A DNA stretch of 63,072 bases, the filler included, from a bacterium (GTDB lineage Bacteria > JAMOTN01), in NCBI GenBank assembly GCA_027062325.1. It is 7 parts of 7 records of this genome, joined end to end, with 100 filler letters (N's around TTAATTAATTAA, not from the genome) between each part and the next. Parts side by side here need not be neighbours in the genome. Positions count along the whole stretch, not along the records: positions 27,948 to 41,671 come from JAMOTN010000004.1; 6 more parts are not named here. One strand, given 5' to 3'. The first letter of the stretch is position 1, and each line of letters begins with the position of its first letter. Below are positions 13,733 through 60,594 of this stretch, piece by piece. The notes beneath the pieces were generated by a model, which was not told the DNA's origin, searched no databases, and saw only the letters and a program-made list of their open reading frames with translations. The position numbers and the translations under genes are program-made.

Positions 13733-13832
13733 NNNNNNNNNNNNNNNNNNNNNNNNNNNNNNNNNNNNNNNNNNNNTTAATTAATTAANNNNNNNNNNNN
13801 NNNNNNNNNNNNNNNNNNNNNNNNNNNNNNNN
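13733..13832. other. Artificial contig spacer
   Basis: 44 N + TTAATTAATTAA (stops in six frames) + 44 N. Confidence 0.98.
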
Positions 13833-14340
13833 TTTCGTAAAATTCGCGTGGCAAAGCATAAAGGTATACATGCTCTGGAATTGTTTGATGAAAAGCAGTA
13901 TCAAATACTCCAACCTGTGGAACATCAGGCAAAAGTTTGGTTATAGCCTCAATCCCTGCAAGATTCGGCGGATTATGAAGAGGAGCAAGTGTGATACACT
14001 CTTTTAACTTCTCAATAACCTCTTCCGTTATCTTCACAGAACTTGCAAACTTTTCTCCTCCATGAACTACACGATGACCCACTGCCGAAATCTCTGACAA
14101 ATCCTTTATAACACCCTTTTCTTCATCTACTATTACCTCTAGGATTCTCTGGATAGCCTGTTCGTGATCCTTAGCTTCAACTTCAAACTTGTACTCGTTA
14201 TCTTGAGTTTTGTGCTTTACAAAAGCATCATCTTTCCCAATTCTATCCACTATTCCCCTACACAACACTTTTTCCCCTTCCATATCAATTATCTGGTACT
14301 TTGCAGAAGAGCTTCCACAGTTCAAAACAAGTATTTTCAC
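13833..14340 (-). CDS. ackA: Acetate kinase (N-terminal part, truncated by the contig end)
   Basis: ILVLNCGSSSAKY, GHRVVHGG, LAPLHNPPN, VFDTAFHQT. Confidence 0.95.
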
Positions 14341-27847: not shown

Positions 27848-27947
27848 NNNNNNNNNNNNNNNNNNNNNNNNNNNNNNNNNNNNNNNNNNNNTTAATTAAT
27901 TAANNNNNNNNNNNNNNNNNNNNNNNNNNNNNNNNNNNNNNNNNNNN
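27848..27947. other. Artificial contig spacer
   Basis: 44N-TTAATTAATTAA-44N. Confidence 0.98.
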
Positions 27948-27948
27948 G

Positions 27949-28416
27949 CTTGATCACTGGAGTAATCCTTCTGCAGTTGTTACTGTTGACCTTGATTACT
28001 GGGCAAGTGTTGAAGATGTGTTTAAAAAGGCTTGCAATGATATATTGGACGGTGTAGGAGGTGCTACTAAAGCTAACTTTAAGAACGAGTTAGATAATGA
28101 CACAACAGAGGTTCAGTATGCATACTTTTGGTTGGCTACAGAAGAGGGATGGTCTTTCATAGATATGCACCGGATACTTGAAATAGCTGGAGGTAAGACA
28201 GGTATGAATTATTTGAACGACATGGATGCAATAATGCAGAATTTGATACTCAAGGTTTATAAAAGTCCTTTGACAAATTCCAATAACTACGGTATCTACG
28301 TTGCTTTTAAAAAGAACGCAACCACTGAAACAGATGATTTGACACTGTGGGATCCCAGTTACTTAAATAGAGGCTTTTGTGTTTACACTAGGTGGCGTGA
28401 AATTTTAGAACCTTAG
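27949..28416 (+). CDS. C-terminal fragment, clostripain (C11)-like
   Basis: Frame open from the gap; VVTVDL, SFIDM, YGIYVAF, YLNRGFCVYTRWREIL match the pattern of C11 C-termini (IDL, GLSIYFP, Y..L.F...T.W..FL). Confidence 0.5.
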   Translation, partial: LDHWSNPSAVVTVDLDYWASVEDVFKKACNDILDGVGGATKANFKNELDNDTTEVQYAYFWLATEEGWSFIDMHRILEIAGGKTGMNYLNDMDAIMQNLILKVYKSPLTNSNNYGIYVAFKKNATTETDDLTLWDPSYLNRGFCVYTRWREILEP

Positions 28417-30183
28417 TTATTCTTCTTCTTTGTCAATTCCGAATGAGATTAAGAAGTTGCGTATATCATTCCTTGTGAATGGATAGCGGGGGATGAGCGT
28501 TTTGAATTGAGAGGGAAGAGTTAACTCTACACTTAAGCTTTCTATAGCAGCTTCGAATTCACCCTGTATATCTTCTACAAAAGCGGCGAGTTGAGAAGCA
28601 TGCTCTGTTAGGAAAAAGTTGAAAACTGCTTTTGGACACAGACCTAGGTTTTCGCTCATAGCACTGAAAATTAGAAGGTAGCGGCTCAGTTCCGTAACGG
28701 GACCTTTTTTGCTCAAGTCGTAGTTGTGGAGTTGTAGAATTCCGGATGTAAATGAGTAAAGAGGAAGATAGTCAAATGTTGGTACTGGAGAGAGGGAAAG
28801 ATTAGCAGCAGTGTGTAATTCATTCGAAGTTGATACAACACTGAAACTTTTAAAAGATGTGGATGGAATCATGTTGAATAGGTGATTTAAGATTTGAGGA
28901 GACAATTTTACAGCTTCTTGAGAAGAGATTCTTGAAGCAGCTTCTATGGGAGATAGGCTATTTTCAAGCCAGTATTGAATTTCAGCTAAGGTTTTTGCTT
29001 CATCTGAAAATGAAAAGAACAAAAGATCTTCCAAGGTAGGAACGGGAAGGGTTCCTTCAAAGTGAAGACGTCCCAGACACTTTATACTACAGCCAAAACA
29101 GCCAAACTTTTCTCTTTCTTCAAACAATTGATACATTCCGGAAGATATAGGACGACTTATAGCTCCAGTATCGTTTAATTTTTCTACTATTGCAAGATCA
29201 GAATAGAGTGGAAGTCCCACTTCTAAAAATTCTGAAAGTATGGGAATATCAAGTTCTGGAAGTTGCGCACGCTCTACAGCGATTGCTAGCAGATTTTTCT
29301 TTGCAAAGGCGAAAGCTGCTCCCCCTCTTGCTCCATAGCTTGTGAAGTTTCCGTCACGGTGGAGGATAACAGATGAAAATGTTTTAAAGGGACCCAGGTG
29401 AAGGAGTGAGTAGTCTGCTACTAGAGATTCGATAAATGAGGCTTCCTCACCTTCAATTTCAATGAAATCAATTCCGGATTTGGTAATTAGTAGAACTGTA
29501 GGTTTGGATGCAGTGCCTGTTATTTTCAGCACTGGGATTTTAAGTTGAGCTAAGTGTTTCCCAAGGTTTCCAACCATCTTAGCAGAATAAGTTAAGAAAT
29601 TGTTGTTTACTACTACACTAAAACCACCTGTCAGATTTGCAGCGTACTTTGAAAGCTTTCCAGCAAAGATTACTATTGATCCTTTTGAAGCTTCTTTTAA
29701 AGCAAATGATCTACGGTTTGCTGGTAATTTTTCAAGTTTGAATGTTTTGGAAGAAAGGTCTATGTAACAGGCTGCGTCTTCTGAGTGAGTAAATAGGATG
29801 GGGGCTTCTTCTGTGAAAAAGATTACGTTTGCAATGGAAGAGGCTAAGTCCTTGTATTTTATGGGGATTAAGAATTGAATTTGAGTGTTAATGGAGGATA
29901 ACTCCTCTATTTCTTCTCGAATTCTAACTATATCTCTGTGCTCAAAGTTTACAAGATTTGGAATAAAAGCTACAATGTCAGCGCCATTTCTGATGGCAAA
30001 TTGAGCTTCAACAAGTTTTGCATTGACAGGGCTTATACCCCATGGATAACCTATTACGGCAACAATTTTGAAACCTTTCTCCTTCAAGGAAGTTGCGTCT
30101 TTTACACAAGCTGATACAGTGTATATTAACTTACCTACTGGCTTAAAATTTGTGTCCAGAGCAACAAATTTTGGTGTTATCAT
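28417..30183 (-). CDS. Fusion of a degenerate DeoC-like domain and an aldehyde:ferredoxin oxidoreductase-like domain
   Basis: N-term VIGYPWG...[17 protein letters not shown] parallels the adjacent DeoC; then [49 protein letters not shown] (AOR motifs). Confidence 0.72.
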
Positions 30184-31022
30184 GATCTTTTAAGCTCTGC
30201 CTCCTCTTTTGCAATCTTGACGCCTGAACTAGTTCCCAGTCTATTTGCACCTGATTTTATCATCTTGACAGCGTCTTCGTAACTTCTGATTCCCCCTGCA
30301 GCTTTGACTCCCATCTCTTCTCCTACAGTTTTTCTCATGAGAAGAACATCTTCAGCACGTGCTCCCCAAGATCCGAATCCAGTAGAAGTTTTTACGAAGT
30401 GAGCACCTGCTGCTTTTGAAATTATGCAAGCGGTGATTTTTTCTTCATCTGTTAAGTAGCAGCACTCTATTATTACTTTGACAACATTTCCGGATGCTGC
30501 TTTTACGACTTCTTCAATATCATGCTGAACAGCTTTGTAATCCTTATCCTTGAGGGCTCCAATGTTTATAACCATGTCTATTTCTGTTGCACCGTTTTTT
30601 ATTGCCTCCTCGGTTTCCTTTGTCTTTGCATAGGTTGTAGTTGCTCCAAGGGGAAATCCGACCACTGTGCAAACGTCAATCCCTGTCCCAGATAAAACTT
30701 CTGAGCAGAGTTTAACCCAGTAAGGATTTACACATACACTTGCAAAACGATACATTTTTGCTTCTTCACATAGTCGCAATATATCGTTCTTTTGAGCAGT
30801 TGGTTTTAAAAGAGTGTGATCTATCATTGCGGCAACGTTTACGTTGAGTGTTTCGCCGCGTTTAATGTAAGGCGTTTTGTAGTAGCTGGTTAATCTGTCT
30901 TCTGATGAGGTTATGCGCCGTGATACTTTAGCTCCTTCTGAAGCTGAAAAGTTGAGACCGCCTTCTTTCAATGGAACTGAAAAATCAAGGTTGTTGAGAA
31001 CTTTTCTTATTTCTGCGTCCAT
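30180..31022 (-). CDS. deoC: Deoxyribose-phosphate aldolase with a ~60-aa N-terminal extension
   Basis: [45 protein letters not shown]. Confidence 0.96.
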
Positions 31023-31297
31023 TTTCTTCCCTCCCTATACACCTCATCAACTATACCTATTATGCCATATATGAAAGGTGCTTCTTTGTCACCTAATATG
31101 GATTGAACGCTTCCTCCTTCTTTTATGAAAAGGACAATGTCTCCTACTCTGGCACCTACAAAGTCTATCATAACTTCACTCTTACCAGTTGAATTTAAAT
31201 TGATATCCAGCACCTCTACTAAGAACAAACGCTTGTTTTTAAGTTTTCCTATCTTCTCATTCAATACGACTTCTTCTTTAACACGGCCGAACTGCAC
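31007..31297 (-). CDS. BMC vertex (pentamer) protein, EutN/CcmL family
   Basis: GTG start with SD GGAGG; MQFGRV...K..KL...LFLVE...[12 protein letters not shown]...GGS...IIGIVD. Confidence 0.88.
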
Positions 31298-31310
31298 AGT
31301 ATATCCTCCC

Positions 31311-31592
31311 TTATTTGGTTCCTTCTTTTTTTCCAGACTTGTCGACGATTCCAATTATTGTGGCATCAGAGGGTACTATGCGCTCTGGAAATACGAGACC
31401 TGCTTCGAGGCCCCCAGTGGTCATCACAACATACTCACCATAGCCTGCACCTATTGCATCTGTTGCTATTAAAAAATTACCTGTTTCTTTCAACTCTTCA
31501 TTGAGTTCTTCTACAAGGAGAAGAGCCTTGCCTTCAACCACTGGATAAAGATAAGAAGGTGTCACTTTACCAACTACTTTTCCAAACTTCAC
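31311..31592 (-). CDS. BMC vertex (pentamer) protein, EutN/CcmL family
   Basis: MKFGKVVGKV...LLLVE...ATDAIGAGYGEYV...PSDATIIGIVD. Confidence 0.93.
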   Translation of the reverse strand: MKFGKVVGKVTPSYLYPVVEGKALLLVEELNEELKETGNFLIATDAIGAGYGEYVVMTTGGLEAGLVFPERIVPSDATIIGIVDKSGKKEGTK

Positions 31593-32431
31593 ACTATCAC
31601 GAACTCCTTTCCTAAATCTTTGGCGATGTCTCGAGCAAGCGGAGTAATGATAGTTTTCTTAGTTATAGGAATTTGATTTCCCTTCCAATGCTTTACAGTT
31701 TCCTCTGATACGAATTTTAAGGGTTGCATGGATGAGTTTAGCTGCGAATTGGTATTATTTACCAACTGACGCTTGACGTTTTCAATTTTTGCTTCTAGTG
31801 AAGTTGGTTCTTTTAGACTACTGGGTGTATTACAAAATGGAGAGGTACACTCTTCAGGTAGAGAGTTTATGCCATAAGGATCAGAACGACTAGAGAAAAT
31901 TTTGGACGTTGTATTTGGTAGTAAGTTGTTTACAGAATAAGCAGATGCTGACGATGCTTCTTTTGCTACAATTTGTGCTTGAAATAGAACACGGTTTTCA
32001 ATTGCGGTTATTTTGTCCACTCGTCTTGTATGGCGTCCACCTTCAAATTCAGTAGTTAAAAATGTTTCTACTACCCTTTTGGCAACCTCTTCACCTATAA
32101 CACGTGACCCCATGGTCAGCACGTTTGCGTTGTTGTGGGCGCGTGCATTGTAGGCTGAGAATATTTCATTGCAGCAGGCTGCTCTTATTGTTGGAATTTT
32201 GTTGGCAACCATTGCGCTTGCAACTCCGACTCCATCAATCATTATTCCAAATTCAGCTTCCCCGTTCGCAACTTTCAGTGCAACTTGAATGGCAAAGTCG
32301 GGATAATCAACAGATTCTGGGGAATGGGTGCCAACATCTATTACTTCAACTGAAAATTTATCAACTATCCATTTTTTCAATTTCTCCTTTAATTCGAATC
32401 CACCGTGATCAGAGCCTATGACGATTTTCAT
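31589..32431 (-). CDS. rpiB: RpiB/LacAB sugar-phosphate isomerase with a long C-terminal extension
   Basis: IGSDHGG, SVDYPD, ANKIPTIRAA, HNNANVL, FEGGRHTRRVDKI; ~130 extra residues ending IITPLARD. Confidence 0.9.
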   Translation of the reverse strand: MKIVIGSDHGGFELKEKLKKWIVDKFSVEVIDVGTHSPESVDYPDFAIQVALKVANGEAEFGIMIDGVGVASAMVANKIPTIRAACCNEIFSAYNARAHNNANVLTMGSRVIGEEVAKRVVETFLTTEFEGGRHTRRVDKITAIENRVLFQAQIVAKEASSASAYSVNNLLPNTTSKIFSSRSDPYGINSLPEECTSPFCNTPSSLKEPTSLEAKIENVKRQLVNNTNSQLNSSMQPLKFVSEETVKHWKGNQIPITKKTIITPLARDIAKDLGKEFVIV

Positions 32432-32462
32432 ATCCTTTCCACCTCACAAGTTTACCTCTTCA

Positions 32463-32494
32463 ATTATACAAAAAACTTCCTAGTATGCTATAAT
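32463..32494. promoter_or_regulatory. Overlapping divergent -10 boxes between rpiB and etfB
   Basis: Plus strand TGCTATAAT (extended -10, 32486-32494); minus strand TATAAT (32463-32468). Confidence 0.5.
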
Positions 32495-32560
32495 CCTAGC
32501 GAAATGTGAAAGTTCTTTTACAGAGGAACTTCTTTAACAATTTTAAAGAGGTGATTTGAT

Positions 32561-33310
32561 TTGAAAGTAGCGCTTTTGGTGAAGGGAACACCTGTTGAAC
32601 TAAGACCGACCAAAAGTGGTGGATATGTAAGAGAAGAATTAATATTAAATGAGACAGAGTTGAGTGCAGCAGGTTTTATTAACAAACTTTGTGCAGCAGT
32701 TAATGATGTGACGGTAGATGTCGTAAGTATGGGGCCAGAGGTTAATACTGAGGTAATTGTTCAGGCAGCGAGCGTGTTTGATGAGGAGTTGTGGGGGGAA
32801 TTTTATCTGCTTTCTGATCCGCGGCTTAAAGGTTCTGATACTTATGCGACGTCTAACGTGCTGGCTTCTTTTCTAAAAAAGAAGAATTATCAACTTATTC
32901 TTACTGGAAGTTACACTCAAGATAGTGCTACTTCTTTTGTACCTGCTCAGATTGCTCATATACTTGGTTATGCTTTTGCTGGTGATATAGTTGAAATTGT
33001 GGAAGTTAGATCTGAATATGTGCATTTAAAAGCTGGAGAAAATTGGTTAGATGAGATGAAAGTTAAGTATCCTGCTTTGCTTGCCTTTGCCCCTTCTAAA
33101 GTAGCAATAAATTTTGGTAGAATAGCAAAGGCGTTGAAAAGGGAAGTTAAAGTTATAGAAGGAGACGAAATAGAGGTCAAACCTTCCTTGACGGAGGTTG
33201 TTGCTGTAGAGAAGATTAAGTTTGAGAAGAAGGCGGAGAAAATAGAAGGGGATGTGTTGGAGAAGGCTAAGAGGGTATTGGAGATAATCAAAGGAGGGGA
33301 GGAGTTATGA
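32561..33310 (+). CDS. Electron transfer flavoprotein beta subunit-like (divergent)
   Basis: VVSMGP, LLSDPRLKGSDTYATSNVLA, LILTG...QDSATSFVPAQIA. Confidence 0.8.
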   Translation: MKVALLVKGTPVELRPTKSGGYVREELILNETELSAAGFINKLCAAVNDVTVDVVSMGPEVNTEVIVQAASVFDEELWGEFYLLSDPRLKGSDTYATSNVLASFLKKKNYQLILTGSYTQDSATSFVPAQIAHILGYAFAGDIVEIVEVRSEYVHLKAGENWLDEMKVKYPALLAFAPSKVAINFGRIAKALKREVKVIEGDEIEVKPSLTEVVAVEKIKFEKKAEKIEGDVLEKAKRVLEIIKGGEEL

Positions 33311-34632
33311 AAAGACCAGAAATAAAAACTCAGCTTCCTGGACCGGAGGCAAAGAAAATTTTGGCAGATGATGAACTGTTTATTTCTCCATCATATACTA
33401 GAAGTTATCCCATGGTTGCCAAAAAAGGGAATGGATGTTGGGTAGAAGATGTTGATGGTAACACTTACCTTGACTTCAATGCAGGAATTGCTGTTTGTTC
33501 AACTGGACACTGTCATCCAGAGGTTGTAGAGGCTATAAAAAAGCAAGCAGAAGAGTTAATTCACATGTCAGGAACTGATTTTTACTATCCTCAGCAAGTT
33601 GAGCTTGCCAAAAAACTTGCGGAGATTGCCCCAGGTGATAATGCCAAGCGTGTATTTCTTTCCAACTCTGGTGCTGAGGCAAACGAAGCTGCGATAAAGC
33701 TTGCTCGTTATCATACAAAGCGTCAGTATATTATAGCTTTCTACGGAGCTTTCCACGGTAGAACTTACGGAGCAATGAGCCTTACTGCTTCCAAGTATGT
33801 TCAAAGGAAGCACTTTGCTCCTCTTGTTCCTGGCGTTATTCACGTACCATATCCAAATCCATATAGACCTCCATTTTCAAAAGATGTTTCACCTGAAAAG
33901 GTTGCGGAAGAGGTAGTTCAATTTATTGAGGAAGTTGTATTCAATACTGTTGCTCCGGCAGAAGAAGTGGCGGCTATAATAGCGGAGCCAATTCAGGGAG
34001 AGGGTGGTTATGTTGTTCCGCCGGATAACTTTTTCCCACTTTTGAAGAAGTTGTGTGAAAAGTATGGAATCTTGCTTATAATTGATGAAGTTCAGGCAGG
34101 AATGGGAAGAACTGGTAAAATGTTTGCAATTGAGCACTTTGGAATAGAGCCTGATATAATTAGCGTTGCAAAAGGTATCGCTTCTGGTATGCCTTTGGGT
34201 GCTACAATTGCTTCTCGTGACGTTATGGATTGGCCTCCAGGGGCTCATGCGACTACTTTTGGAGGAAATCCAGTATCTTGTGCAGCTGCGCTAAAGACAA
34301 TAGAGCTTCTTCAAAATGAGTTGATTGAGAATGCGGCACGTCAGGGTGAGTACTTACTTGGAGAGCTTAAGAAGTTTATGGATGAATTTGAGTTCATAGG
34401 AGATGTTCGTGGAAAAGGTTTGATGATAGGTGTAGAGATAGTCAAAGATCGTGAGACCAAAGAAAGGGATGGTGCATTGCGCGATAAGATCGTTGATGAA
34501 GCATTTCGTAAAGGTTTGTTGCTTCTTGGAGCTGGTGCAAATGTTATAAGATTTTGCCCACCACTTGTAGTTACTAAGGAAGAGATAGATGTTGCACTTG
34601 AAATCTTGCGTGATGTTATGAAAAGTGTTTAA
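33307..34632 (+). CDS. Class III PLP aminotransferase (4-aminobutyrate/ornithine omega-aminotransferase type)
   Basis: NSGAEANE, FHGRTYG, EPIQGEGG, DEVQAGMGRTG, AKG, TFGGNP. Confidence 0.93.
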   Translation: MKRPEIKTQLPGPEAKKILADDELFISPSYTRSYPMVAKKGNGCWVEDVDGNTYLDFNAGIAVCSTGHCHPEVVEAIKKQAEELIHMSGTDFYYPQQVELAKKLAEIAPGDNAKRVFLSNSGAEANEAAIKLARYHTKRQYIIAFYGAFHGRTYGAMSLTASKYVQRKHFAPLVPGVIHVPYPNPYRPPFSKDVSPEKVAEEVVQFIEEVVFNTVAPAEEVAAIIAEPIQGEGGYVVPPDNFFPLLKKLCEKYGILLIIDEVQAGMGRTGKMFAIEHFGIEPDIISVAKGIASGMPLGATIASRDVMDWPPGAHATTFGGNPVSCAAALKTIELLQNELIENAARQGEYLLGELKKFMDEFEFIGDVRGKGLMIGVEIVKDRETKERDGALRDKIVDEAFRKGLLLLGAGANVIRFCPPLVVTKEEIDVALEILRDVMKSV

Positions 34633-34678
34633 GGTGCGATAAGAGCTTTTGCTTGGTGGAGGTAAAATAATGCTTGAT

Positions 34679-34723
34679 GGGGTGGCAAGGGAGATCTTGT
34701 AAGTGATCCTTTGCTGCCCCTTT
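34679..34723 (+). terminator. Putative intrinsic terminator
   Basis: GGGGTGGCAAGG...CCTTTGCTGCCCC followed by TTTGTT. Confidence 0.6.
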
Positions 34724-34788
34724 GTTATTATTTGTAGAAAGTATTGTGAATGTTAAAAGGTAGGAGCAAAGAAAGGAGGATGAGAGGG

Positions 34789-35184
34789 ATGGAAGTGATT
34801 ACAGTAAAAACTTCTCGTCGTATTCAGATGATTGATATAACTGCAGAGGTTGAATCTGTGGTGAGAAAAAGCGGTATTCAAAATGGAATAGTAGTGGTAT
34901 TTATTCCTCATACGACTGCTGCTATCACGGTGAATGAAAACGCAGATCCATCTGTAAAACATGATCTTGAGGAATTTTCAAAGGAGCTTGTACCGCATAA
35001 TTGGCGTTGGACGCATGGTGAGGGAAATTCAGACAGTCACTTTAAGAGTTCAATGTTTGGTCCGTCATTGACGCTTATCGTGGAGAATGGTCGTATAGCT
35101 TTGGGAACTTGGCAGGGAATAATATTTGCAGAATTTGATGGACCGCGTACCAGAAAGGTGTGGATACAAGTTATTGGTGCTTAG
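34789..35184 (+). CDS. yjbQ: YjbQ/UPF0047 family protein
   Basis: PHTTAAITVNENADP, HGEGNSDSH, LGTWQGI, EFDGPR. Confidence 0.92.
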   Translation: MEVITVKTSRRIQMIDITAEVESVVRKSGIQNGIVVVFIPHTTAAITVNENADPSVKHDLEEFSKELVPHNWRWTHGEGNSDSHFKSSMFGPSLTLIVENGRIALGTWQGIIFAEFDGPRTRKVWIQVIGA

Positions 35185-35212
35185 AAAGTGAAAGATGTGG
35201 GATTTTTAAGAG

Positions 35213-35662
35213 GTGATAAATGTGAACTGGAGAAAATTTTTTAGAGAAAAGGCTTGGTTAGGGGGGACTATTTTAGTATTTGTTTTGTTGCTTTCAGGGG
35301 AGTTTGCTAATTCTGATTCGTGGTTTGCAGGTAAAAGACCGTATGCTTTCATGGTTGGTGGCGGTGAGGCTGATGTTTACTCAAATTGGTTTTTGTTAAT
35401 TGGATCTGATTGGAGAATAAAGGGGAAAAATGTTGCCACACCGGATGATGGAACGTTTGTCTATATGCTTAAAAAGTACGTTTATATCATAAAGAGAATA
35501 GGTTATAACGGCAAAATTTTGCCAATTGCCTTTAAAAAAGGGAATTTTTTGATGATGGGTTTGGAACTTGATGGTTATTATATTGTGTTTTTGCCAATTG
35601 TTGGTATGCAAAGTGAACCATATTTGACACCCTATCAATTAATGAATATGAGGGAAAAATAA
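35213..35662 (+). CDS. Hypothetical exported protein
   Basis: SD GAGG, N-terminal hydrophobic segment, terminator directly downstream. Confidence 0.55.
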   Translation: MINVNWRKFFREKAWLGGTILVFVLLLSGEFANSDSWFAGKRPYAFMVGGGEADVYSNWFLLIGSDWRIKGKNVATPDDGTFVYMLKKYVYIIKRIGYNGKILPIAFKKGNFLMMGLELDGYYIVFLPIVGMQSEPYLTPYQLMNMREK

Positions 35663-35666
35663 GTAA

Positions 35667-35693
35667 GCCCGGCTGAGTTTGGATCAGCCGGGC
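35667..35693. terminator. Hairpin terminator between convergent genes
   Basis: GCCCGGCTGA-GTTTGGA-TCAGCCGGGC. Confidence 0.75.
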
Positions 35694-35736
35694 ATGTTTT
35701 TTGATATTTTTGATAAGTTGTCTAGAGCGTATTTTC

Positions 35737-36729
35737 CTAATTGTCAAACAAGTTATCTATAAAGTTGTGAATCTCTTGAGTTGCTGCATTGATTAGCTGT
35801 TGAGTTGCTTGATTTACTGCATGTTCAAGTTCTGAATGAAAGTGATCTGTCTCATTCTGAATGGCAGGTATTAGCTGATCTGCTGCAGATACGTATCCTG
35901 CTACATAGCCAAGTGCTGATGAAAATTCAACGTTTTTCTGAGTAAGCTTTTTAGCATACTTTGGATCTTCGACGTAATACATTACAAGAAGTCCTTGTAT
36001 AGCTTTTTCGATTTCTTTAGCAGCGTTAACTAATCCCCTCAAAGCTCTTGTAGGGGGATTTTCAGAACGAAGTGCTTTCACAAGAATATCAATAACATTG
36101 AGCTTTTTGGCTTTTATAGCTTTTACAGCTTCCTCTGCAACAGCTTTTGATAACTTTTTCTCCTTGTCAACCAAAGCTGCATATTGATCAGCAATGTCTG
36201 GATTGTTGAGAAGCTCAATTTCCAATTGATAACGCTTTTTCCCAACAGCGAGCAACTTTCTTACAAGGCTTGCGAAGCCAAAGGCAACCTCTTGAACTTT
36301 CTTCTTGGCGATTTTTACTTCCTGCATATCTGAAACATTAAGAGTTATTACAACCTTTTTAGTTTTCCCGGTAAAACTCTTTGCAATTAGTGTTTTGTTG
36401 ACGGAAGAGCTATTGACTATTTTGTGGTAAACTTTCAAGGCGTCTTCTTTGTAGTTGTGTTTTTCTAAAATGGTTGCTGCCTTGAATAGGATACGGATAG
36501 CATCTTGCAACTTCTTGATTGAGCGGTCTTTGTATATCTTCAACGTTTCGTCGAAAGAAAACTCTGCTACGTATAGCATATTTTCTGTTTTTGCAGCTTC
36601 TCTTATTAGGCCATCAGCTTTTTTAACCAGTTCACCAACTGTTGCAGCATTTATAATTAAGTTTACAATCAATACACTGATAGGGATTATTTTTGCAAGA
36701 TTCATATCTACCACCTCCATACTCCCCAC
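35737..36729 (-). CDS. Hypothetical exported all-helical protein
   Basis: Signal-like MNLAKIIPISVLIVNLIINA with SD GGAGG just upstream, so the true start is probably that Met; Ala/Lys-rich helices. Confidence 0.65.
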   Translation of the reverse strand: MGSMEVVDMNLAKIIPISVLIVNLIINAATVGELVKKADGLIREAAKTENMLYVAEFSFDETLKIYKDRSIKKLQDAIRILFKAATILEKHNYKEDALKVYHKIVNSSSVNKTLIAKSFTGKTKKVVITLNVSDMQEVKIAKKKVQEVAFGFASLVRKLLAVGKKRYQLEIELLNNPDIADQYAALVDKEKKLSKAVAEEAVKAIKAKKLNVIDILVKALRSENPPTRALRGLVNAAKEIEKAIQGLLVMYYVEDPKYAKKLTQKNVEFSSALGYVAGYVSAADQLIPAIQNETDHFHSELEHAVNQATQQLINAATQEIHNFIDNLFDN

Positions 36730-36802
36730 GCTAGCAGGCTACTTCATTCTACCCTTCCACAGTGAATTTTAATGATTTGATGAGGTGGTGTATCATACTT
36801 GG

Positions 36803-37150
36803 CTAATTACTTTTTATCCACGTTGCTAGTTTTTGTAAAGATATAGGTAATTTAACGGAACTTGTTGAAGTATAAGTTGTGTATTTAATGCGAATATCTC
36901 CTTTGTTTATGACTATTGAGTTAATAGCTAATTCATCTGGAAGTTCATTTTCGAGTTTGTTCAGTGTTCCAAGAATGGATGGAGGAGATACGGTTTTTTC
37001 TTCGTATTTAAAATTAATAAAATTTAAGATTGCTCCAATTAAAAGTGTTGAAAGAGCAATAACAGCTAAGATTGAATAAAAATGTGGTGAGATTGGGAGA
37101 CTTCTTGCCCATACCGGGACTAAATTATTAAGTTTCTTACTTTTTCCCAT
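36803..37150 (-). CDS. Small membrane protein, PilN-like
   Basis: One TM helix, then LNKLENELPDELAINSIVINKGDIRI resembling PilN. Confidence 0.4.
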   Translation of the reverse strand: MGKSKKLNNLVPVWARSLPISPHFYSILAVIALSTLLIGAILNFINFKYEEKTVSPPSILGTLNKLENELPDELAINSIVINKGDIRIKYTTYTSTSSVKLPISLQKLATWIKSN

Positions 37151-37767
37151 AGTGAATCAACCTCACATTTTATCTCTCTGTTTAGTGATTCTTCAATACT
37201 GCTTTTAATCTGATTTATACTCTCTGAATCTTCAAATAGAAAAAATACTTTTTCACCTTTTTCTTCGATGTCAGACATAGTAGAAGCGATGTTTACAATA
37301 CTTTCTGAAGAGATTTCTCCTTGGGATGTAGAGAATTGCTCAGATGTTCCAATTATAAATTCGAAGTAAGGTGAGATTTCATTACTCTGTTCTTTTGATG
37401 AATAAGGTTTTTGAGTTTTCAAAGATAAAATTAGAAGGTTTAGCTTTGTCTCTTCAAGTTTTCCTATAAATACAGGGAGCAGGGCATTATGGATACAACA
37501 GTGATGTATATGAGCTGGATCAAATTTTGAGGAGGTGAGAATTATACATTTGGTAAAGGTTGGTATGTCCAGTTTTTCTCTTAAAGATAAAATCTTTATA
37601 GGTAGTTCTTCTACTATATCAAAGCTTTCAATGGCTACATTGTATTTATAAGTATCAATAAGGATTGTGTGGTTTTGTGAAAAGATTAAAAAAGCTTGAG
37701 GAATAAAAGGCTTCATTTTTACCCAACTTTTAATACGTTTTTTCACGGCTTCTAACTTTTCGTTCAA
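37120..37767 (-). CDS. Hypothetical protein (possibly a degenerate PilM/GspL-like protein)
   Basis: SD GGAGG, 215-aa ORF directly upstream of the PilN-like gene. Confidence 0.45.
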   Translation of the reverse strand: MNEKLEAVKKRIKSWVKMKPFIPQAFLIFSQNHTILIDTYKYNVAIESFDIVEELPIKILSLREKLDIPTFTKCIILTSSKFDPAHIHHCCIHNALLPVFIGKLEETKLNLLILSLKTQKPYSSKEQSNEISPYFEFIIGTSEQFSTSQGEISSESIVNIASTMSDIEEKGEKVFFLFEDSESINQIKSSIEESLNREIKCEVDSLWEKVRNLII

Positions 37768-37803
37768 TACTGCTACCTCCTTGACTTGATAATAATTTAC
37801 CTT

Positions 37804-38901
37804 TTAAAGTCTTGTGTATTTTAAGGGGTTCACAGGTTTTCCGTATTTTCTAATCTCAAAATGAAGATGAGGGCCTGTGGCAATTCCAGTTTTACCAACT
37901 TTACCTATCACTTGACCTTTTTTAACATGCTGTCCATTTTTGACAAGTATTTTAGAAAGATGCGCGTATCGGGTTTCAAAACCTTTTTTATGCTTTATTA
38001 CAATAACTTTTCCGTATCCACGAAGCCATCCTACAAATGTGACAACTCCATCAGCTGCAGCATATACTGGCCTTCCAATTTTACCGCGTAGATCAATTCC
38101 GGTATGAAGTAGCCTTATGTGATATACAGGATGAATGCGATATCCAAAAGGAGAGGTTATGATGATTTTACCTCTTAAAGGTGAAGAAAACATGTACTTT
38201 TTAGAGATATGTTTTGGTTTTTCTAGAAACATTGCTAAGTCAACATTACCTTTTGCTTTGTAAGAAGCAGGTGGTATCAAGAGTTTCTGGCCTTCTTTTA
38301 ACATTGCAGTTTTTAAATGATTGTACTCTATCAAATTTATGAGTTTAACTTTAAATTTTCTGGCAATTGTCCACAAGCTGTCACCACGTTTCACAGTGTA
38401 AATAATAGGTTTATTTTGTTCTGTAGATTTTGTTAAAACTGTAGAAGAGATGGTTTGCTTGCGGTTTGAAAGGTTAAGTTGTGCTGGGAAAGTGTTTTGA
38501 GTTTGTATCTTAGAAGTTTTGGAATAACTTATCTTTGAATTGACATTTGAAGTTTCAACGAGCATTTGCGTGTTAGAGGTGAATTTTTTTGCTTTTACCT
38601 GGAGTTTTATCTCTCTTCCTTTCATTACTTTGAAAGAAAGTTTGTTTTGTGATGAGCTTTTTACTTGATTAAAAATTTTGTCTAGAGCTTTGACAAGTGT
38701 GATATTAACTTTATCGTTTTTATGCTGCCATTGCCAGTATTGAGTTAATTCTAATGTTGTTTTGTATACATGACCTGATTTTAAAGGGGTGGCTTGAAAT
38801 GAAAAAAGAATTGCTATGAGTGTGATTGAAAATATGATTGCTGCTACAGTGGTTGAAAGTGTCATTAGATCTAATTTGATGTTGTTCAGTTTTAGATTCA
38901 T
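37804..38901 (-). CDS. Membrane-anchored LysM + M23 peptidoglycan endopeptidase
   Basis: YTVKRGDSLWTIA (LysM), HTGIDL, YAHL, TGPHLHFEI. Confidence 0.92.
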   Translation of the reverse strand: MNLKLNNIKLDLMTLSTTVAAIIFSITLIAILFSFQATPLKSGHVYKTTLELTQYWQWQHKNDKVNITLVKALDKIFNQVKSSSQNKLSFKVMKGREIKLQVKAKKFTSNTQMLVETSNVNSKISYSKTSKIQTQNTFPAQLNLSNRKQTISSTVLTKSTEQNKPIIYTVKRGDSLWTIARKFKVKLINLIEYNHLKTAMLKEGQKLLIPPASYKAKGNVDLAMFLEKPKHISKKYMFSSPLRGKIIITSPFGYRIHPVYHIRLLHTGIDLRGKIGRPVYAAADGVVTFVGWLRGYGKVIVIKHKKGFETRYAHLSKILVKNGQHVKKGQVIGKVGKTGIATGPHLHFEIRKYGKPVNPLKYTRL

Positions 38902-38935
38902 ATTTTCCCCTCCCAGATTTTTGACTCCATAAAAG

Positions 38936-38962
38936 ATATCGGTAAAGAATAAAAAAAGTTAA
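38936..38962 (-). promoter_or_regulatory. Putative sigma28 promoter
   Basis: TTAA-N15-ACCGATAT. Confidence 0.55.
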
Positions 38963-38965
38963 AAT

Positions 38966-39003
38966 AAAAGCCCCGCCTCAGCTTTAACGCCAAGAGGCAG
39001 GGC
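38966..39003 (-). terminator. Intrinsic terminator after flgE
   Basis: Minus strand GCCCTGCCTC...GAGGCGGGGC-TTTT. Confidence 0.75.
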
Positions 39004-39055
39004 AATTCCCAAAGCACTCACGGAGGGGTGGTGGTTGCTATGGGAGGGGGTGGGG

Positions 39056-41671
39056 TTATCTCCGCAAGTTAACCAACTCCTCTAGGATTCTATCTGAAGT
39101 GGATATGACGCGTGAATTCGCTTGGAATCCACGTTGGGCTATTATCATATTTGAAAATTCCTCAGATAAATCAACGTTGCTCATTTCCAAAGCGCTTCCG
39201 ATAATCTTACCACGTCCTCCAGTGTTTGGAATACCAATTTGTGCTATTCCAGAGTTTGCTCCTTCAATGAAAAGAGTGTTACCTATGGATTCTAGACCTG
39301 CTGGGTTTCTAAAAATGGCCAGTGGTATCTGACCAACTTTTCTCCTGACACCGTTGTCGTAAACCCCAGTGATTGTTCCTATTTCGTCAATTTCGAATGA
39401 TTTCATCATACCCATTGAATAACCATTTTGTTGACGAGGAGTGGTTGTGGTTTCGCTTTGGAATTGAGTGACTCCAACCATATCAAGTGAAATTTCCTGC
39501 TTTGTTCCATCAGGATACGATATTGTTAAAGGAGGAACAATATTTGGAGGAGATACATTGTTTGCTGTTGCAGTTTTTGTTTGATCTAAGCGACCGTATT
39601 CGTCAAAAATCAAATATCCCCAGTTGTCAGAGATTTGCTCATTTAATGGATCTCCTTCGTCGAATTCTGCTTTGTATATCCAGTGGTCTTTACCAATTTT
39701 TTCAAATGATACACGGAGGTTGTGCTCTCCACCTTGTCTGTCGTATATTTTTATGTTTGTAACGTGTGTTTTTCCGGGAGTTAGGTTTATATCCATTGGT
39801 GAACCTCTACCGTTTTCAACAATTCTTACGTTCAGTCCACTTTGATCAGGAGTAGGAGATATTGCCATCTTTACCTTTTCGGTAACGTTTATTGGAGCTT
39901 CGGTTCGAATAGTTGCATTTCCTGCTTTAAGTTGATCTATTGAAAGCTTTATGTATCCGATATTTGAGTCTCCAATTGTTATCTCTTTTGAGTTTGCAGA
40001 TACGTTTTCTAAACTTATAGTCATTTCTACTTCTTCATCTGTACCGCTTGTTTTTCTTATACCTTTGAACTTGTCTACAACATTGTAAGTTATATCTTTT
40101 CCAGTACCGGTAATGTTTTCGGCTGTTGTTGGGTCACCGTGACCTGTATCTGTTGCACTAGTTGCACTACCTGTGGTTATCCAGTTATCTAAAAATCCTC
40201 CAGTGTCTCCATTTTCATTAACTGTAATAGTTGCTCCTGTTCCGCCTTCCTTTGAAAGTAAAACAAATCTTCCATTTTCTATGTAAGCATCCATTACGTC
40301 TTTAAGTTGTAATCCACTACCATTTGCATCTGTTACGCTCATCAAAGAGTTGATAAAGTCTTCAAACGTAGTAGTAGATGTGGCTCCTGTGTCAGATATG
40401 TAGAATCTATAAGTTCCTGATGAGTTTGTAATTTCGATGTATTCGTTTGTATAAGAAGTAGTGTTGACGCCAATTTCAGTGGTTGGAGAAATACTTAAAG
40501 TATTGTCACTGTAAATTTTTGCACCTTCAATTTCTGTGAATAGAACTCTGTAAACACTTGGGGTATTCAAACTACCGGAGACTTCTAAACTTATATCACT
40601 GCCTGTATAAGCTGTCTCAAGAACAAGTTGACCTTCTTCAAGTTTTGCTGTAACCATACCCGCCGTTTGATCATTTATGGCGTTGATTAAATCTCCAATG
40701 GTTTTGCAGTTTGAAGGATTAACTTTGTAAACGTATTCTCCAATACCTCTTACAGTTAAGACAAGCGGAGCTGATAAATCAGTGATACCCACATCATTTA
40801 ATTTTGTATCTTCTGTCAAGTACCATGGTTGGAATGATATTGAGTTTCCATCGTTGACTGTGTCTCCGTCTGTACCAGCTCTCTTGTAAGAACCCATTAC
40901 CTTAGCAGGTTCTGCTGGGTTTTCGGAGACAGTTATATTGTGAGTACCATCTAGAAATTCTCTTTGAGCGATTACACTTGGAAGATCTCCGTCGGAAAAA
41001 GATGAATCAAATGGAGATGTTGAAGATTTGTTTGTTGCACCAGTAGAATCCGTCAATGAAAAGTTTACATTTTTGATAACTACATTTTCTAAGTTTGGTT
41101 TCACTGTCATGTATATCTTACCGTTTCTGTACTCAAAATTTACATAGTCTTCTAATTTGTGCGCTCCGTCTGCTGTTCTAAAACCTATATTGTCTGATCC
41201 ATCTGAATAATTTAGTTTTTGTAGTAATGAGGCTGGAGTTTCACCAGCAGCAATTGTTATGTAGTCACTGGACGGAGAAGTTGAATCATCATATAAATTA
41301 AAGGTCAATTCTTGATCTCCCATTTGTAAAACAACTTGACCATATATTCTATCTCCAGCTGAGATATTGTTATTTGAATTGTCGATAGCATCGTTAATTG
41401 CTGCAATATCTCCTGATGAATTTTTAAATTCGTTGTTATTAGCTCCAATTTCAATCCACTTGTGCCACAGATCTGCTAATGGTTCAACTTCTGTAAATCC
41501 TGCAGTGTTTCCCTCTTCAAGATATGCTTTAGCAGGTTGTCCATCTGTTCCATCTGGATCAAATTCTAAGTTTATTTGACCAGAAATTATTTTACCAGCC
41601 CAATCAGCTTGCACTATGGGTGGAATTGCAAAGTTTATTGGTTCTCCATCAACCGTGAGGTAAACGCGCCA
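39056..41671 (-). CDS. flgE: Flagellar hook protein, very large, N-terminus truncated by the contig end
   Basis: IYDRQGGEHNL (FlaE/D2), QQNGYSMG, FRNPAGL, LEMSNVDLSEEFSNMIIAQRGFQANSRVISTSD; frame open to the gap (871 aa visible). Confidence 0.92.
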   Translation of the reverse strand, partial: WRVYLTVDGEPINFAIPPIVQADWAGKIISGQINLEFDPDGTDGQPAKAYLEEGNTAGFTEVEPLADLWHKWIEIGANNNEFKNSSGDIAAINDAIDNSNNNISAGDRIYGQVVLQMGDQELTFNLYDDSTSPSSDYITIAAGETPASLLQKLNYSDGSDNIGFRTADGAHKLEDYVNFEYRNGKIYMTVKPNLENVVIKNVNFSLTDSTGATNKSSTSPFDSSFSDGDLPSVIAQREFLDGTHNITVSENPAEPAKVMGSYKRAGTDGDTVNDGNSISFQPWYLTEDTKLNDVGITDLSAPLVLTVRGIGEYVYKVNPSNCKTIGDLINAINDQTAGMVTAKLEEGQLVLETAYTGSDISLEVSGSLNTPSVYRVLFTEIEGAKIYSDNTLSISPTTEIGVNTTSYTNEYIEITNSSGTYRFYISDTGATSTTTFEDFINSLMSVTDANGSGLQLKDVMDAYIENGRFVLLSKEGGTGATITVNENGDTGGFLDNWITTGSATSATDTGHGDPTTAENITGTGKDITYNVVDKFKGIRKTSGTDEEVEMTISLENVSANSKEITIGDSNIGYIKLSIDQLKAGNATIRTEAPINVTEKVKMAISPTPDQSGLNVRIVENGRGSPMDINLTPGKTHVTNIKIYDRQGGEHNLRVSFEKIGKDHWIYKAEFDEGDPLNEQISDNWGYLIFDEYGRLDQTKTATANNVSPPNIVPPLTISYPDGTKQEISLDMVGVTQFQSETTTTPRQQNGYSMGMMKSFEIDEIGTITGVYDNGVRRKVGQIPLAIFRNPAGLESIGNTLFIEGANSGIAQIGIPNTGGRGKIIGSALEMSNVDLSEEFSNMIIAQRGFQANSRVISTSDRILEELVNLRR

Positions 41672-41771
41672 NNNNNNNNNNNNNNNNNNNNNNNNNNNNN
41701 NNNNNNNNNNNNNNNTTAATTAATTAANNNNNNNNNNNNNNNNNNNNNNNNNNNNNNNNNNNNNNNNNNNN
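41672..41771. other. Artificial contig spacer
   Basis: 44N-TTAATTAATTAA-44N. Confidence 0.98.
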
Positions 41772-55065: not shown

Positions 55066-55165
55066 NNNNNNNNNNNNNNNNNNNNNNNNNNNNNNNNNNN
55101 NNNNNNNNNTTAATTAATTAANNNNNNNNNNNNNNNNNNNNNNNNNNNNNNNNNNNNNNNNNNNN
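55066..55165. other. Artificial contig spacer
   Basis: 44N-TTAATTAATTAA-44N. Confidence 0.98.
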
Positions 55166-57798: not shown

Positions 57799-57898
57799 NN
57801 NNNNNNNNNNNNNNNNNNNNNNNNNNNNNNNNNNNNNNNNNNTTAATTAATTAANNNNNNNNNNNNNNNNNNNNNNNNNNNNNNNNNNNNNNNNNNNN
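57799..57898. other. Artificial contig spacer
   Basis: 44N-TTAATTAATTAA-44N. Confidence 0.98.
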
Positions 57899-60494: not shown

Positions 60495-60594
60495 NNNNNN
60501 NNNNNNNNNNNNNNNNNNNNNNNNNNNNNNNNNNNNNNTTAATTAATTAANNNNNNNNNNNNNNNNNNNNNNNNNNNNNNNNNNNNNNNNNNNN
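60495..60594. other. Artificial contig spacer
   Basis: 44N-TTAATTAATTAA-44N. Confidence 0.98.

Follow-up and report, generated by a model that had tools for sequence, protein, structure and literature searches.

Why does an operon that encodes an intact deoxyribose-phosphate aldolase (DERA, the DeoC protein) and two shell proteins of a bacterial microcompartment (BMC) end with a gene in which a piece of DERA is joined to a body resembling aldehyde:ferredoxin oxidoreductase (AOR), and is the product of that gene an enzyme? The question is posed by P0001, an open reading frame (ORF) of the bacterial assembly GCA_027062325.1 (lineage JAMOTN01), carried on a 63,072-nucleotide stretch of DNA, here called the window, in which seven parts of the genome are joined end to end. 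An earlier note, made from the DNA alone, had read P0001 as a dead aldolase domain that docks an Fe-S module onto the active aldolase, either as a CoA-independent sink for aldehydes or as a cofactor-less relay or scaffold. Our analysis bears out the anatomy: a dead DERA-derived N-terminal domain is followed by an AOR-fold module with four cysteines and eroded pterin and active-site motifs, as seen in hhalign and MAFFT alignments. Because the four cysteines are kept and most residues for the W-bis-metallopterin are lost, the protein most likely holds an Fe-S cluster but neither carries a pterin nor oxidises aldehydes, and it is probably a helper protein rather than a new aldehyde-oxidising enzyme. 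In the form to which we give about an even chance, P0001 would be a non-catalytic [4Fe-4S]-binding accessory or scaffold without pterin, made together with DERA and probably tethered to it or to a core of DERA and ribose-5-phosphate isomerase (RPI).

Architecture and residue losses of P0001

The proposed ORF is real and lies on the minus strand, and all the motifs quoted for it occur in its translation. Its parts, compared below with those of P0002, the single relative with a matching layout, are as follows:

28417..30183, minus strand: P0001, fusion of a DERA fragment with an AOR-like body, 588 aa, ATG start, stop codon (28417-28419) included
29779..30183, minus strand: N-terminal domain, residues 1-135, of truncated-DERA origin (phmmer against PDB DERAs; conservation against P0002)
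29890..30063, minus strand: core DERA-homologous segment, residues 41-98, corresponding to beta3-alpha3-beta4-alpha4 of the barrel (hhalign)
28420..29775, minus strand: AOR-fold body, residues 137-588, ~452 aa (AFOR_N, hhalign, Atlas)
29077..29100, minus strand: CxxCxxxC (Cys362, Cys365, Cys369), three presumed [4Fe-4S] ligands (14/14 AORs and P0002)
28636..28638, minus strand: Cys516 (in ENLGLC), presumed fourth [4Fe-4S] ligand (14/14 AORs; Cys571 in P0002)

A phmmer search with P0001 against all PDB sequences returned 12 chains, every one of them a DERA, with matches covering residues 27-120 at most. BLASTP aligned P0001 with the adjacent DeoC at 31% identity over 59 aa (E 2e-8), and hhalign against six DeoCs gave 97.7% and E 1.3e-12 over 58 columns only (residues 41-98); a greedy hhalign alignment stretched over residues 1-140, with low confidence outside ~33-98. 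Among the profile models, TIGR00126 deoC matched residues 30-92 (E 8e-7) below its cut-off (28.7 against 117.3 bits) and Pfam DeoC PF01791 did not match. The resemblance to DeoC that the earlier note saw over the first ~120 aa is thus a real homology, but its significant length is ~60-90 aa.

Compared with the DERAs described by TIGR00126 and PF01791, P0001 retains between roughly one quarter and one half of the barrel, including the GFPxG...AKxxEA...GA core formed by strands and helices 3-4, whereas the phosphate-binding loops and both lysine strands are missing. At the column of the catalytic Asp (D102 in E. coli), where the DeoCs have Asp (5/6) or Glu (1/6), P0001 has Ala72 and P0002 also has Ala. 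As the earlier note had stated, equivalents of KTSTG and VKAAGG are absent from P0001, and hhalign found no segment homologous to the Lys167 and Lys201 strands; the low-confidence greedy extension places Phe122 at the Lys167 column. With Ala in place of the Asp, and without the strands that carry the Schiff-base lysine and the lysine that lowers its pKa, the domain is, as judged from its sequence, catalytically dead and unable to perform aldolase chemistry. What it retains may be a contact surface: PMC4725968 places the dimer contacts of E. coli-type DERA at K58/D82 and around A95, with helices 5-7 opposite the interface, and by offset mapping these contacts would fall in or beside the segment retained in P0001.

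The body of P0001 is a very divergent AOR fold. Pfam AFOR_N (PF02730) matched residues 169-304 at 30.0 bits, a borderline score against the gathering threshold of 29.8, and AFOR_C (PF01314) gave no match even at E 10; the whole fold is nevertheless covered by hhalign and by the Atlas model. A profile of P0001 and P0002 aligned by hhalign with five true AORs over 463 columns (93.7%, E 1.8e-7), and the comparison with 15 AORs reached 98.6% and E 1.3e-15 over 320 columns in local mode (P0001 residues 137-460) and 99.4% in global mode. The C-terminal third was aligned by MAFFT, by global hhalign and by hhalign against five AORs, but not by the local run. L089 and L093, the best AOR matches of the P0001 and P0002 profile, lie close to the P. 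furiosus enzyme 1aor (E 1e-102 and 1e-99). In the ESM Atlas, the model of the exact P0001 protein (pTM 0.63, pLDDT 0.62) has AOR/FOR clusters as its nearest structures, with a TM of 0.62 over 433 residues (131-573). At ~452 aa, the body is shorter than the 15 AORs used (570-786 aa), in agreement with the earlier note.

The four apparent cluster ligands are conserved, as the earlier note had proposed. In the MAFFT alignment Cys362, Cys365, Cys369 and Cys516 match cysteines in 14/14 AORs and in P0002, and they are the only cysteines common to both fusion proteins, which have six (P0001) and seven (P0002). Most of the AOR cofactor site is lost. Taking as AOR-conserved the 59 MAFFT columns in which 12 or more of the 14 AORs agree, P0001 keeps 17 and P0002 keeps 18; ten are kept by both, and four of these ten are the cluster cysteines. 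The corresponding hhalign counts are 15/57 and 16/57. The losses include the motifs surrounding the pterin: SPLTG reads NNFLT in P0001 and NKLTG in P0002; the Gly-Glu pair is Lys-Thr and Ala-Ala, respectively, in MAFFT and is left unaligned by hhalign; Gly-Thr is Ser-Asp and Ser-Gln; EYE is TLE and KWH; and the Asp of DxxGxD is Ser and Cys. The Arg of GRxG is present in P0001 and is Gly in P0002, the second Lys of KxxK (in GRxGxG..K..K) is Leu in both proteins, and the GAxH loop, which bears the catalytic His, is deleted in P0001 and reads K-N-x-N in P0002. The erosion of EYE and DxxGLD remarked on in the earlier note therefore holds, within a loss of 42 of the 59 conserved columns.

A passage of PMC12096430 names Thr243, Glu313, Tyr427 and His448 (P. 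furiosus numbering) as conserved second-shell residues of AORs. When P0001 and P0002 were mapped to these numbers by motif, via L089, Thr243 corresponded to Asp329 in P0001 and Gln344 in P0002, Glu313 to Glu385 and His404, and His448 to a deletion and Asn530; the Tyr427 column lies outside the conserved columns and was left unplaced. By motif, then, the Glu is the one second-shell residue left in P0001, and none is left in P0002. The loss of AOR-type catalysis is well supported by these alignments. Loss of the metallopterin itself is no more than probable, because the YdhV and benzoyl-CoA reductase clades lack the second-shell residues and yet, according to the same passage of PMC12096430, bind Mo/W-bis-MPT.

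Could P0001 nevertheless be an active, divergent metallopterin enzyme that oxidises the acetaldehyde released by DERA (or glyceraldehyde-3-phosphate), delivers the electrons through its [4Fe-4S] cluster and replaces aldehyde dehydrogenase (AldDH) as a CoA-independent sink? In favour of this, P0001 retains the entire AOR fold and all four cluster cysteines as well as the Glu313 equivalent (E385), Arg286 and Lys296, and the clades just mentioned show that an AOR relative may dispense with the usual second-shell residues and still bind the cofactor. Set against this are the 42 lost columns, the deletion of the His-bearing loop in P0001, the failure of PF01314 to match and the death of the fused DERA part as well; moreover, P0002 has His for Glu313 and Gly for Arg286, so that no active-site feature is common to both members. 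With the second-shell residues mostly lost in P0001 and entirely lost in P0002, we disfavour the aldehyde sink suggested in the earlier note and regard an active enzyme as decidedly unlikely. A cofactor-less relay or scaffold, the other option raised there, fits the residue losses better.

Gene order and microcompartment context

Six artificial linkers, each consisting of 44 N, TTAATTAATTAA and another 44 N, interrupt the window, and only genes within 27948-41671 are real neighbours of P0001, because the window is a concatenation of contigs. This true contig (JAMOTN010000004.1) is 13,724 bp (13.7 kb) long and ends 470 nt past P0001. A contig from a JGI metagenome (L088) has this very length, 13,724 bp, and was 100% identical to window positions 27948-39586 over the 11,639 bases compared. 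As for the '375,776-bp contig', it is a concatenated bin, in which gene neighbourhood across linker points is meaningless.

From downstream to upstream, the contig carries a convergent ORF cut at its 5′ end, P0001, DERA, two genes for BMC-P pentamer proteins and an RpiB-type isomerase. The five minus-strand genes have overlapping ends and thus form one operon, of which P0001 is the last gene, its start ATG overlapping the stop codon of DERA (ATGA). The features are:

27949-28416, plus strand: 5′-cut ORF, 155 aa seen, no Pfam match; its stop codon abuts the opposite-strand stop codon of P0001
30180..31022, minus strand: DERA (DeoC), 280 aa, with intact EIDMV, FVKTSTG and VKAAGG motifs (TIGR00126, 282.7 bits)
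31007..31354, minus strand: BMC-P (EutN/CcmL) pentamer protein (PF03319, 61.7 bits, residues 21-103); translation probably begins downstream of the TTG given here
31311..31592, minus strand: BMC-P (EutN/CcmL) pentamer protein (PF03319, 72.5 bits)
31589..32431, minus strand: RPI, first operon gene, RpiB-type over residues 1-146 (PF02502, 189 bits)
13733-13832, 27848-27947, 41672-41771, 55066-55165, 57799-57898 and 60495-60594, no strand: linkers, N44-TTAATTAATTAA-N44

The gene content is that of a sugar-phosphate utilising (SPU) module. DERA together with RPI is given as the SPU signature in the introduction of PMC11585597 (Dwyer 2024), section 7 of that paper describes an N-terminal extension as the hallmark of SPU-BMC DERAs, and its section 9 reports that a DERA-RPI complex is formed in SPU6. 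In the P0001 operon a pfam02502 RPI accompanies a DERA with such an extension, 62 aa long, the DERA profile beginning at residue 63 of 280; several Chloroflexi/Anaerolineales DERAs align with this protein from about residue 32. The RPI carries a C-terminal extension of 134 aa (window 31592-31993, minus strand), unlike the N-terminal extensions ascribed to SPU RPIs in a part of PMC11585597. This extension had no Pfam match when taken alone and no counterpart in the 80 DERA loci described below, and its last ~55 residues bear a weak likeness to TIGR02536 eut_hyp (E 0.001) and PduM (E 0.14).

The compartment itself is less complete. The neighbour scan covered ORFs of at least 90 aa, so that smaller shell genes are possible; BMC-H proteins are usually smaller than 90 aa. 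Within this scope, neither the contig nor the rest of the window contained BMC-H/T (PF00936), AldDH (PF00171), PTAC or PduS, and two BMC-P were found where SPU loci have BMC-H/T, a BMC-P triplet and AldDH. The contig also has no phosphopentomutase gene. Being short, it may leave the main BMC locus or an AldDH gene elsewhere in the genome. The BMC operon of the earlier note is therefore upheld as regards BMC-P, DERA and RPI, and not as regards BMC-H/T and AldDH. The lack of AldDH on the contig would also suit the active-enzyme explanation considered above, but the shortness of the contig blunts that argument.

As a comparison set we used the 80 loci in species-representative genomes whose DERA is closest to the neighbouring DERA. 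BMC-P was present in 25 of these and RPI in 32, and both lay within 6 kb in 24. The usual gene order was RPI-DERA-P...P-P, as opposed to RPI-P-P-DERA in the P0001 operon.

The same facts could be taken to mean that P0001 is an Fe-S redox protein unrelated to a BMC, such as a redox sensor or an electron carrier in cytosolic nucleoside-sugar catabolism, with the two BMC-P as remnants of a lost compartment. Neither the 13.7-kb contig nor the other 49 kb of the window yielded BMC-H/T or AldDH, and no convincing encapsulation peptide was seen in P0001: the only candidate is a short C-terminal helix (571-579) after a Pro-containing coil, in a low-confidence model (pLDDT 35), and the tail is poorly conserved in P0002. 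On the other hand, both BMC-P are intact and stand, together with a DERA bearing the SPU-type N-terminal extension, in a tightly overlapping operon, and section 10 of PMC8217296 (Sutter 2021) describes satellite loci of the related HO type in which two BMC-P accompany an aldolase. We consider a role apart from any BMC doubtful, though worth keeping in view.

Beyond RPI, the contig carries divergent, unrelated genes: an ETF-beta-like gene, a class III aminotransferase, UPF0047, several unknowns, an M23 peptidase and FlgE. The ETF-beta-like gene (32561-34632, plus strand, a range that includes the aminotransferase) scores 56 bits with PF01012 and 69 bits with the EtfB model, whose cut-off is 445; it overlaps the start of the aminotransferase gene and is divergent from the RPI operon, and no ETF-alpha partner was seen. 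The FlgE-like hook protein (39056-41614, minus strand) is unusually long at 852 aa and stops 57 nt short of the contig end. An Rfam scan of the P0001 contig gave no match, and promoter and terminator scans gave results at chance level only. Elsewhere in the window, an acetate kinase ORF (13777-14340, minus strand) is limited to the first 187 aa, matching profile positions 1-168 of 392. At 13789-13832 it runs into a linker, and truncation at a contig end, not decay into a pseudogene, is the most likely explanation. AspRS, on another contig of the bin, has a best identity of 48%, and its tree places it weakly (SH-aLRT 86) near Thermotogota and 'Ca. Hydrothermia'.

Conservation of the layout in P0002

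Scanned exhaustively with HMMER (E <= 0.001), 1.84 billion representatives yielded nine proteins: the P0001 query itself, seven DeoCs matching the fragment only, and P0002 (643 aa, E 2e-18, 26% identity). The search for the same fusion elsewhere thus found one relative. P0002 has the layout of P0001, with a DERA fragment that carries Ala at the Asp column, an AFOR_N match of 42.2 bits and the matching four cysteines; it is recorded solely from NCBI, on a 252-kb contig unrelated to that of P0001. The N-terminal domain is the best conserved part of the pair (31-40% identity), whereas identity falls to 20-25% over most of the AOR body and rises locally near the Cys motifs. Two DeoC proteins from the same scan, P0003 (355 aa) and P0007 (480 aa), show an internal duplication of a DERA segment, as a repeated block of ~130 residues in P0003 and as two DeoC stretches in P0007, so that partial DERA duplications occur elsewhere.

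Further searches did not enlarge the family. Homologous-protein searches with P0001, with P0002 and with the alignment of the two (A1) returned only the queries themselves. Related-locus searches gave DeoC loci only with A1 and nothing with P0002 in genome contigs, and the A1 profile matched only DeoCs in five single genomes. A profile of the AOR part (A3) found only P0001's own contig among metagenome contigs, and no family member in sets of 201, 201, 93, 151, 301, 251, 86 and 151 genomes (eight phyla) or in five single genomes; one of the 201-genome searches returned ordinary AORs only (E 2e-7 to 6e-4). These A3 searches used thresholds from 1e-3 to 1e-8 and had no positive control, so that their blanks show little.

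Such rarity raises the suspicion that P0001 is a functionless, decaying relic of an ancestral DERA-AOR fusion, or an assembly chimera. Catalytic residues are lost in both halves, the family is extremely small (two members in 1.84 billion representatives), and the domain junction at ~29780-29830 is not bridged by the contig pieces of two other, independent runs; the JGI contig is identical across the junction, but it is probably not independent. These points are countered by a frame that stays open over 588 codons in DNA of 38% GC, by the ATGA translational coupling to DERA, and by P0002, which at 26% identity and on an independent contig preserves the domain order, the four cysteines and the Asp-to-Ala change. 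In addition, the contig pieces of the two other runs consist of near-identical DNA, and one comes with listed differences in P0001: all four are synonymous third-position changes, as are the differences in DERA (2/2 synonymous) and RPI (1/1). This pattern speaks against the decay (dN/dS near 1) that the earlier note had named as a possible outcome. Because of the open frame, the conservation in P0002 and the synonymous differences, we regard a relic or chimera as very improbable.

Proposed role, relation to known systems and significance

Taken as a functional but non-canonical two-part 'pseudo-enzyme', P0001 would be translated last in the RPI, BMC-P, BMC-P, DERA operon, coupled to DERA through the ATGA overlap, and would work as an accessory of an SPU-type deoxyribose-5-phosphate module. 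Its conserved DERA-like domain may tether it to DERA or to the DERA-RPI core; the higher conservation of this domain in the pair lends indirect support to the docking suggested in the earlier note. The body, presumed to bind a cluster and to lack a pterin, could provide a scaffold and might in addition relay single electrons or respond to redox state, or its cluster might do no more than stabilise the fold. A bolder version, in which the pterin-free AOR fold is re-used as a [4Fe-4S] electron conduit that the dead aldolase domain bolts onto the DERA-RPI core of a BMC, as a stand-in for a PduS-type protein, appears unlikely to us.

Several observations weigh against the accessory or scaffold role. 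The three-dimensional models are weak, the single-sequence AF2 model of P0001 (pLDDT 35) being useless and the Atlas pLDDT just 0.62, and the residue mapping depends on alignments in which P0001 is 14-22% identical to AORs. In view of the clades described in PMC12096430, loss of the second shell is by itself no proof of pterin loss. The fragment is just 31% identical to the neighbouring DERA, and it shows no preference for BMC-linked over other DERAs (median 21.0 and 22.2 bits, respectively; p 0.10). With BMC-H/T, AldDH and PduS missing from the contig, the compartment in this organism is only putative, and none of the 80 related DERA loci carries an AOR-like ORF, so that P0001 is a rare addition rather than a standard SPU part.

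Among known proteins, the tungsten AORs sensu stricto (P. furiosus 1aor; 9mqx, 9g7j, 8c0z) resemble P0001 in the three-domain fold and the CxxCxxxC...C ligands. P0001 differs from them in a body ~120-330 aa shorter, in the extra DERA-derived N-terminal domain, in the unmatched PF01314 and in the loss of 42/59 conserved columns, including most pterin-site and second-shell positions. With the SPU loci of Sutter 2021 (PMC8217296) and Dwyer 2024 (PMC11585597), the P0001 locus shares an extended DERA, RPI and BMC-P in one operon, and it differs from them in gene order, in having two BMC-P only and in the absence of BMC-H/T, AldDH, PTAC and PduS from the contig. The main texts of these two papers, supplementary locus tables aside, mention neither AOR nor pfam02730.

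A closer parallel in layout comes from archaea, where an Atlas cluster of 61 members (793 aa, mostly Thermoproteota) joins an OMPdecase domain, an HPS-like TIM barrel, to AFOR_N and AFOR_C. Like P0001, these fusions place a TIM-barrel domain of the carbon-carbon lyase type N-terminal to an AOR fold (TM 0.63 with the Atlas model). Unlike P0001, whose halves are both degenerate, they have full Pfam domains, with AFOR_N and AFOR_C in 100% of members. They offer a precedent for a lyase-AOR fusion, which would favour an active P0001, and they may also picture the ancestral state. We found no paper on these archaeal HPS-AOR fusions. Likewise, full-text searches of the literature found no paper that joins BMC with AOR in this sense, reports a DERA-AOR fusion or describes a pterin-less AOR-family protein, and thus none describing the architecture of P0001.

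The AOR family is treated as one of obligate W/Mo-metallopterin enzymes, and a conserved member with only an Fe-S cluster would demonstrate re-use of the fold independently of its metal cofactor. Few BMC types are as widespread as the SPU/DERA module or as poorly understood; if our reading is true, P0001 would be an unlisted accessory of it, with an inactive version of the signature enzyme perhaps serving as a tether. Were the conduit version true, P0001 would represent a redox accessory of a kind new to BMCs and would be the first in the AOR family to work without tungsten or molybdenum. Automatic annotation would label P0001 'aldehyde ferredoxin oxidoreductase', an error that would lead metabolic reconstructions to assign CoA-independent aldehyde oxidation to the organism by mistake.

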